A model generated the notes under the pieces. It saw nothing but the letters and a program-made list of their open reading frames with translations. It was not told where the DNA came from and did not search any database. DNA of 64,000 bases from Escherichia phage 172-1. The translations under genes were made by a program, and so were the position numbers. Where the stretch lies: sequence record NC_028903.1, one strand, 5' to 3'. Within the stretch, counting starts at the first letter, position 1. Each line of letters begins with the position of its first letter. This document shows, one piece after another, positions 29,245 through 30,268 of the stretch.

Positions 29245-29627
29245 TCTCCAGTGATTTCCATATCTGCTTTATCTCCTTTCTTAGTAAGGAGGATTGCTGG
29301 TTTATTCTTACTCTTCATATACTCAAACATGTGCATAGAACCTCTTGACTCTCCATCCCAGAAGACTATTACTGCATCTGCATAATCACCCATATCTACG
29401 TTTCGAAGTATCCCAGCCTTTTTGCCGAGTGTATTCCACGAAGGAGTAAAACGTTTAATTGAGATATCATTATGCTTAGCGACAACCTCTCCGTGAAGAT
29501 CTGGCCCTCTAGCACCACCTGACACTACTTCTGAAATGAGCTTAGGGATTTCCTCTGGAAGTAAAGCCCACATCTGAGTAAAAGAATGCCAGTCTATCGA
29601 CCGGCTTCCTGCGATTATTACTTTCAT
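29235..29627 (-). CDS. DprA/Smf-like Rossmann (SLOG) domain protein
   Basis: [11 protein letters not shown] ... [10 protein letters not shown] pattern as in DprA/SLOG nucleotide-binding folds. Confidence 0.4.
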
Positions 29628-30268
29628 GTAATCAATCCTTGAAATTCTTCTTTATCGAAATGCTTCTCTACCACATACTCATACAGATCTTTTAATTCTG
29701 CATAACGTCGGTAGAAAGTTCCATGTGACATGCCAATAGTTTTCTGAATGTGGTCATGGGGAATACCCAAGAAAATCATTGAGAACATATTAGCTAACTT
29801 CTGAGTATCCATCGTATCACTTAAATCTTGGAAGAAGTAGAAGATACGAGACTCCATGAATGGGTCACCAACAGAGTCTTGCTTATCCATAGCAATCTCT
29901 AAAGGACTATCCACCATATCAGGGGTGCGGAACATATCAGCCTCTGGAATAGAGTAGATACGACGGTCCCCTACAGTCTGCCTATTTGAGCGTATAGACC
30001 AGATAATATTCTTGACTCGATAGGTCATATGCTCTTGGTCTTTCTCGTCCTCTAGGACTCTCTCATCCTGCTTAGCGAAGACAAATCTCCAAGCGTTCAA
30101 GAGCACTTCCTGTGCCACATCTTCTGCTTCATGATAATCTCTGATATCGTACATGAAGAACTTGTGAACCACTTTCCAGTTCACTCTGTAAAACTCTTCA
30201 TAGTTTGCGATGTACTTAATAGGGATTCCATGAATGCGATATCTTGTAGGTGTTGTCTTCTTCGCCAT
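29624..30268 (-). CDS. ECF-like sigma-70 family sigma factor
   Basis: region 2 match [16 protein letters not shown] and region 4 [21 protein letters not shown]. Confidence 0.65.

Follow-up and report, generated by a model that had tools for sequence, protein, structure and literature searches.

Gene content of the window

The DNA analyzed here, called the window throughout, is a stretch of 64,000 nucleotides from Escherichia phage 172-1 (NC_028903.1), a phiEco32-like podophage of the NJ01-like group (Gordonclarkvirinae, Kuravirus). A 25-kb query from it is 97.3% identical to Escherichia phage NJ01 across 99% of the query, and the gene order of the window is collinear with positions 3801-67551 of phiEco32 (NC_010324). 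When the phiEco32 gene set was transferred onto the window, 6.5% of the latter remained as non-coding DNA. Two genes are central to the analysis.

29624-30268, minus strand: phage sigma factor gene (214 aa), orthologue of phiEco32 gene 36
48873-49121, minus strand: gp79 orthologue (82 aa)

The collinearity with phiEco32 is broken at 32115-33295 (32.1-33.3 kb), where a phosphoesterase-like ORF (32115-32615) and an HNH-like ORF (32625-33107; 35% identity to phiEco32 gp31) are located. Directly downstream of the sigma gene lies a gp35 homologue (29235-29627, minus strand), which is annotated as 'GTP-binding domain' and scores near the threshold of the YspA/SLOG family PF10686 (25.8 bits; cut-off 28.2). 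The sigma gene of phiEco32 is adjoined by gene 37 (macro domain). This gene is missing in the window (30264-30271), with the consequence that the start of the sigma gene and the stop of the spanin ORF before it overlap (TAATG at 30268).

The phage sigma factor and its co-factor

An earlier note, made from the sequence alone, had described the ORF at 29624-30268 as an ECF-like sigma factor. The ORF is real and encodes 214 amino acids; its strand, left unstated in that note, is the minus strand. The peptide that had been quoted as region 2 corresponds to residues 47-62 of the protein. The protein shares 212 of its 214 residues with phiEco32 gp36 (gene 36 of NC_010324; 99.1% identity), the two substitutions being A21S and R28K, and the same 212/214 residues match over the full length of the chain resolved by cryo-EM (PDB 9M7Y_F; E = 6e-145). 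A match to PHROG 1740, 'RNA polymerase sigma factor', was also obtained (1.6e-45). Since gp36 is known as the sigma subunit with which the core RNA polymerase of E. coli is steered to the middle and late promoters of the phage (PMC8948821; PMC4331800; PMC12276001), the identification of the ORF as a sigma factor is borne out. The link to phiEco32-like phages, which that note had also proposed, is exact. In the phage collection 97 records matched the protein, and all of those with a named host are Escherichia or Shigella phages of the phiEco32 group.

The term ECF-like holds only in part. The protein consists of an N-terminal sigma-2-like domain (residues 1-103) and a C-terminal sigma-4-like domain (residues 138-214), in agreement with a two-domain, ECF-like way of working. 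However, the Pfam profile Sigma70_r2 (19.1 bits; cut-off 24) and TIGR02937 (23 bits; cut-off 42.9) both score below threshold, and the Pfam region-4 profile finds no match in the protein. It is a distant relative of sigma-70 and by curated thresholds not a member of the family. Because the curated ECF/sigma-70 thresholds are not reached, we file it as a gp36-type phage sigma and not as an ECF sigma.

The cryo-EM structure of the open complex of E. coli RNA polymerase and gp36 on promoter P68, at 3.4 Å (PMC12276001; PDB 9M7Y), allows a comparison at the level of single residues. In this complex the N-terminal domain of gp36 grips the clamp helices via D44, E47, E49, D50 and E54; W90 and Y83 stack at the fork; the bases -14A, -13A, -12T and -11G are read by N95, S91, S94, E79 and H80; and DNA unwinding begins at -11. 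The flap-tip helix carries the C-terminal domain, in which R187 and Y186 touch -37G and -34A (all PMC12276001). All 23 published gp36 contact residues (list from PMC12276001) are kept in the window protein. They include the contacts to the -10 DNA (E79, H80, Y83, R84, W90, S91, S94 and N95), the two contacts to the -35 DNA, the five clamp-helix contacts and the residues that touch the flap-tip helix and gp79. The 99% identity to the phiEco32 protein predicts that the sigma of the window would bind the core RNA polymerase and transcribe from promoters of the type tAATGTAtA.

The gp79 orthologue is identical to phi32_79 in 81 of 82 residues (98.8%), and its contact residues are kept in all 13 cases (L6, L9, V10, M14, R26, L29, L32, W36, M43, F48, I51, R68 and I70). 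In phiEco32 gp79 inhibits the sigma-70 holoenzyme and co-activates the gp36 holoenzyme: it displaces region 4 of sigma-70 and clamps the C-terminal domain of gp36, whereby P26 and P68 are stimulated three- to four-fold (PMC12276001).

More distant relatives of the sigma gene were found in three IMG/VR contigs of 82-90 kb (L008, L009 and L010, at positions 4880, 5478 and 5572 respectively), in which the protein is 53% identical to gp36. W90, S91, S94, N95, Y186 and R187 are kept in these proteins, while H80N and R84Q are changes at DNA-contact positions. Upstream of the gene 40 homologue, at a distance of about 120 nt, contigs L008 and L009 carry TAATGGATA and not TAATGTATA, the 9-mer of the window; in L008 TAATGGATA is preceded by GGTACTC at -37 to -31. 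In L010 the motif was not found before the gene 40 homologue within one mismatch. All three contigs are devoid of the long intergenic region and of the antisense copy of the motif that are described below for the window. These sequences hint that sigma and promoter may have changed together in this lineage.

Promoter elements in the window

The promoter consensus of gp36 is tAATGTAtA, with starts 6-8 bp downstream, as mapped in phiEco32 (PMC8948821; PMC4331800; PMC12276001). The centre of AATGTA lies at -11.5 (PMC12276001). The following sites in the window are orthologous to published gp36 promoters; their identities are those given in citing papers and in one supplementary table (PMC8948821 Table S3).

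5282-5313, plus strand: P13 late promoter, with TAATGTATA at 5305-5313 and a TAAGACCTA box at 5282-5290; orthologue of phiEco32 9101 (plus)
22149-22180, plus strand: P26 late promoter, with TAATGTATA at 22172-22180 and TAAGACCTA at 22149-22157; orthologue of phiEco32 26014 (plus)
31628-31636, minus strand: P40 middle promoter element, predicted start ~31621; orthologue of phiEco32 36632 (minus)
38190-38198, minus strand: P58 middle promoter element, ATG of the gene 58 homologue at 38153; orthologue of phiEco32 42937 (minus)
42892-42923, minus strand: P68 middle promoter, with AAATGTATA at 42892-42900 and a -35 box TGGTAGTAGATA at 42912-42923; orthologue of phiEco32 46862 (minus)

The assignment of P13 and P26 to the late class and of P40, P58 and P68 to the middle class is that of phiEco32 (PMC8948821 Table S3; PMC4331800; PMC4281155). 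P6 of the phiEco32 set falls outside the window. All five gene-proximal sites have the same orientation as the next gene, whose start codon follows 33-59 nt downstream. For P13 the predicted start is at ~5320 and the ATG of the gene 13 homologue at 5347; for P26 the corresponding positions are ~22187 and 22219 (gene 26 homologue), and downstream of P68 the ATG of the gene 68 homologue is at 42851. Downstream of P40 follow gene 40, the spanin genes and, after them, the sigma gene.

For the numbering of bases AATGTA was set to -14 to -9, as inferred from the published base identities at P68. With this setting -37 and -34 fall on the G and the A of GGTA in P68, as stated in PMC12276001, which supports the numbering. 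The tAATGTAtA element with G at -11 is present at 5305 (plus), 22172 (plus), 31628 (minus), 31700 (plus), 38190 (minus) and 42892 (minus). All promoter sites of the window, phiEco32 and SU7 have an A at -34, and all except P40 of SU7 have a purine at -37. Each of the two features is lacking at one or other of the look-alike sites 16938 and 10987. Not all of these sites are universal, as SU7 has no counterpart of P58. The SU7 genome has in addition a TAATGTAAA element on the minus strand (33589-33597), which is about 18 nt before the start codon of its sigma gene and lacks the A at -34. A matching site is missing in the window because there the start of the sigma gene overlaps with the end of the ORF before it.

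The late promoters P13 and P26 have a common TAAGACCTA box exactly at -38 to -30. The box is kept in phiEco32 and SU7, and the 14-nt spacers that follow it differ between P13 and P26 in the window and in phiEco32. The box may be an upstream element specific for the late class. A third copy of TAAGACCTA occurs at 35847 (plus) inside coding sequence. The near-palindromic sequence that surrounds P40 (TTATGTATA-G-TATACATTA) lacks conservation in the SU7 group and is therefore probably incidental.

Frequency of the motif and look-alike sites

The earlier note had proposed that the 9-mer TAATGTATA and its one-mismatch variants upstream of genes are the promoter element for the phage sigma, and every string quoted in it is present at its coordinates. 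A search of the window found six exact copies, at 5305 (plus), 16938 (plus), 22172 (plus), 31628 (minus), 31700 (plus) and 38190 (minus), compared with 0.56 expected from dinucleotide-preserving shuffles; none of 100 shuffles reached six copies. Five of the six fall within non-coding DNA, which makes up 6.5% of the window (binomial P ~7e-6). An equal frequency in coding sequence, which the earlier note had named as evidence against its proposal, is thus not what is observed. The search thus substantiates the enrichment, and it adds two copies that had not been listed, namely 38190 (P58) and the copy at 16938 in coding sequence. When one mismatch is allowed, 18 sites are found in the window compared with 18.9 expected. 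As a class the one-mismatch variants are hence at chance level, and since only the exact word is enriched, each variant needs independent support. The sole variant validated in this way is AAATGTATA at 42892 (minus), because it is orthologous to the published P68.

Among the sites listed before, those at 5305, 22172, 31628 (minus) and 42892 (minus) stand as promoters, and 31700 is a real copy with no gene downstream on its own strand. The sites at 10987 and 3635 were rejected. The former (TAATATATA) is 12 nt before the holin start codon and the latter (TAATAGTATA, with an inserted base) 14 nt before the major-head start codon; both abut the Shine-Dalgarno sequence, so that a start 7 nt downstream would give no leader. 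The site at 10987 has an A in place of the G at -11 and a C in place of the A at -34. Both sites are absent from the published promoter list (PMC8948821 Table S3).

The exact copy at 16938-16946 (plus) lies within the gene 21 homologue, in a segment with 61% protein identity to phiEco32 gp21, and a one-mismatch copy is found 33 nt upstream (16905). The site has no counterpart in phiEco32. It has a G and not an A at -34, which makes it most likely a chance copy.

We considered whether the TAATGTATA sites could be AT-rich, -10-like elements for the host sigma-70 holoenzyme, in which case the phage ORF would not be their reader. The SU10 genome paper proposes that sigma-70 may also read some middle promoters (PMC4281155), and weak matches to the sigma-70 consensus (9/12) overlap 31683-31712. 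However, sigma-70-like matches occur in that region at chance frequency (7 versus 7.8 expected), and neither the conserved G at -11 nor the invariant 9-mer matches TATAAT. Furthermore, the gp36 holoenzyme acts on P26 and P68 in in vitro transcription and cryo-EM, and gp79 silences sigma-70 (PMC12276001). Together, these results make a reading by sigma-70 highly improbable. Even less credible is the view that the motif recurs as a compositional accident of AT-rich intergenic DNA or as a non-transcriptional repeat (a regulator site or a recombination signal): the copy in coding sequence and the chance frequency of the variants would agree with it, but the exact copies exceed expectation more than 10-fold, their positions are orthologous and conserved in phiEco32 and SU7, their orientation and their distance to start codons are fixed, and they were mapped experimentally as promoters in phiEco32 (PMC4331800; PMC8948821).

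The fact that five sites are orthologues of published gp36 promoters bears out the proposal that the motif is the promoter element of the phage sigma. Every feature of a gp36-type system that can be checked at the sequence level is present in the window. We conclude that the sigma of the window is almost certainly an orthologue of gp36 that replaces sigma-70 on the host core RNA polymerase and reads the five motif promoters. The sigma gene and the motif are the already characterized gp36 system of phiEco32 and not a new one.

Proposed transcription switch

The gp36 transcription switch of phiEco32 was reportedly the subject of earlier studies by Savalia (2008) and Pavlova (2012); the structure 9M7Y comes from Xu et al. 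(NAR 2025). By analogy, the phage sigma subunit would take the place of sigma-70 on the host core RNA polymerase. Its N-terminal sigma-2-like domain would bind the clamp helices, read AATGTA at -14 to -9 and melt the DNA from -11, while the C-terminal sigma-4-like domain would rest on the flap-tip helix and contact the -35 region at -37 and -34. By ousting region 4 of sigma-70, gp79 would turn off host and early transcription, and its clamp on the C-terminal domain of gp36 would stimulate the middle and late promoters. The holoenzyme is predicted to start about 7 nt past the elements at 5305 (P13) and 22172 (P26), where it would serve the late structural operons, and past those at 31628 (P40), 38190 (P58) and 42892 (P68), where it would serve middle genes. 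In vitro transcription of P26 by the gp36 holoenzyme has been reported (PMC12276001). P40 would also feed the sigma gene and in this way create a positive feedback; because gene 40, the spanin genes and the sigma gene follow P40 without an intergenic gap, gp36 probably boosts its own synthesis. The start sites and the timing in the window phage are what we infer; the biochemistry and the structure are from the literature.

An additional copy of the promoter motif at 31700

The copy at 31700 has no published counterpart in the lists compared, and we call it PAS. The features at this locus are the following.

31677-31708, plus strand: PAS, a seventh gp36-type promoter candidate, with TGGTAGTAGATA at 31677-31688 and TAATGTATA at 31700-31708; predicted start A31715
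31715-31731, plus strand: hairpin of 5-6 bp with which the predicted PAS transcript begins; its first base is the predicted +1, A31715
31783-31870, no strand assigned: near-invariant block with a hairpin GCAGG-N5-CCTGC at 31783-31797 and a long hairpin at 31805-31870

PAS lies between genes 40 and 41 in a gap of 315 nt; it is 72 nt away from P40 and faces in the opposite direction. There is no plus-strand ORF downstream of it; the neighbouring genes are all on the minus strand. Its TGGTAGTAGATA box lies at -38 to -27; P68 carries this 12-mer in an identical register, and no further copy of TGGTAGTAGATA occurs in the window.

We aligned PAS with the corresponding DNA from 14 relatives, which belong to Kuravirus, Suseptimavirus (SU7) and Nieuwekanaalvirus (EP335). 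The alignment shows that TGGTAGTA and TAATGTATATA are invariant and that the distance between them is fixed across the three genera, whereas the 15 nt between GGTAGTA and the 9-mer vary freely, except for the first three bases, which are largely conserved. Boxes and spacing are kept even in ES17-type genomes, which have an insertion of ~110 nt alongside. Invariant boxes at a fixed distance over a free spacer are the footprint of selection on a bipartite promoter, as judged from this alignment. PAS is better conserved than the accepted P58, which SU7 lacks.

The hairpin at 31715-31731 is fully paired in each of the seven distinct sequences. Compensatory changes are seen at two pairs (U-A to G-C, and C-G to U-A or A-U), and a G.U pair in it can form on the plus strand alone. 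Its covariation score was reached by none of 500 shuffles, and a shift of the register abolishes the signal. RNAalifold on the whole predicted PAS RNA confined the covariation to this 5' hairpin; the remainder is invariant. Downstream of the 5' hairpin lies a segment with two alternative versions.

The block at 31783-31870 is 97-100% identical in relatives in which gene 40 is 62-95% identical. On the minus strand TTTTTAT follows its long hairpin, which is therefore probably a terminator after gene 41. The same hairpin lies in the path of PAS transcripts, and there is no good U tract on the plus strand. Two AGGGACT repeats in this block are changed together to AGGACT in E20-1, Bas88, Paul and ECBP2.

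On this evidence we tentatively regard PAS as a P68-type (middle) gp36 promoter, which would fire rightwards from ~31715 and produce a non-coding RNA with a conserved 5' hairpin. A somewhat more doubtful reading is that PAS is a relic without function, such as a P68 fragment that arose by duplication and shares TGGTAGTAGATA, or that it loads polymerase near P40 without making a meaningful RNA. This would agree with the absence of a downstream gene on the same strand and of a proper plus-strand terminator, with the fact that PAS is not among the six experimentally reported promoters, and with a predicted RNA that beyond the 5' hairpin is invariant and hence shows no covariation. It is difficult to reconcile with a site that keeps its boxes and their spacing over a free 15-nt spacer in 14 relatives from three genera, in spite of a ~110-nt insertion, and that is better kept than P58; the same applies to a hairpin with compensatory changes which begins exactly at the predicted +1.

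If PAS acts as a promoter, its RNA could be an antisense or interference RNA that acts on transcription reading through into gene 40 and the sigma operon. It could also be an origin or primer transcript in the style of T7 or T4, because the most AT-rich 100 nt of the 64-kb window (31854-31953; 81% AT; overlapping the tiny gene 41) are about 140 nt past the PAS start. The resemblance of a phage promoter followed by an AT-rich stretch to T7/T4-type replication origins is speculative. T7 phi1.1 and the origins at T4 middle promoters are the analogues for such a role as primer or origin. The GC skew turns at ~26 kb and not at 31.7 kb; as this turn coincides with the flip in gene orientation, it carries no information on an origin.

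A type-I toxin-antitoxin reading, in which the 35-aa hydrophobic peptide of gene 41 is convergent with PAS, was weakened because E20-1, Bas88 and Paul keep PAS without an annotated gene 41 or a gap of the size of gene 41. A search of the window for targets on which the predicted PAS RNA could act in trans found no complementarity of at least 12 nt, and 11-mers occur at about chance frequency. A scan of 31400-32200 against Rfam at a permissive E-value gave no match. A search of IMG/VR with GGTAGTA-N16-AATGTATA returned mostly unrelated contigs, the 15 specified bases being too few for this database.

PAS is absent from the compared lists of six promoters, both those reported from experiment and those given for relatives (PMC4331800; PMC8948821 and its Table S3). 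A targeted search found no paper in the searched library that ties phiEco32 to antisense transcription. Relative to these sources PAS looks new, as one unpublished-looking detail of an otherwise known system.

Significance and comparison with known systems

To find again, in another coliphage of the NJ01-like group, a phage transcription switch whose structure is already solved matters little in itself. What it offers is annotation: confident labels for five promoters, the sigma gene and gp79, and grounds to discard two look-alike sites. The antisense-oriented PAS copy is a modest lead, which matters modestly if it is real; a model system with a supposedly complete promoter set would then gain a non-coding transcript or a candidate promoter for a replication origin.

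The bacterial ECF (group 4) sigmas likewise combine a sigma-2-like and a sigma-4-like domain with a linker through the active-site cleft. The sequence similarity of the window sigma to them is weak and extends over region 2. Compared with ECF sigmas, gp36 has a rotated helix alpha-1 and a shortened sigma-4 helix alpha-4 (PMC12276001), and the promoter logic is unrelated.

In the AsiA/MotA system of T4 a small protein disables region 4 of sigma-70 and a second one supplies promoter specificity, as is the case here (PMC12276001). However, T4 middle transcription keeps and remodels sigma-70, whereas the gp36 system replaces it, and the sequences are unrelated. The promoters of T4 gp55, like those of gp36, are dominated by a single element in the -10 region.

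Salmonella phage 7-11 also uses a divergent phage sigma, gp47, to guide the host core polymerase to late promoters, which occupy similar positions in the genome (PMC8948821). This protein is only ~15% identical to gp36 and recognizes a bipartite promoter, GTAAtg-(16)-aCTA; a gp79 homologue, host shut-off and a middle class are all absent from 7-11 (PMC8948821). The closest system is the gp36/gp79 switch of phiEco32 itself, from which the window shows no visible functional difference, and with which it shares the gene order, the promoter positions, the contact residues and the bases of P68 at -37 and -34.
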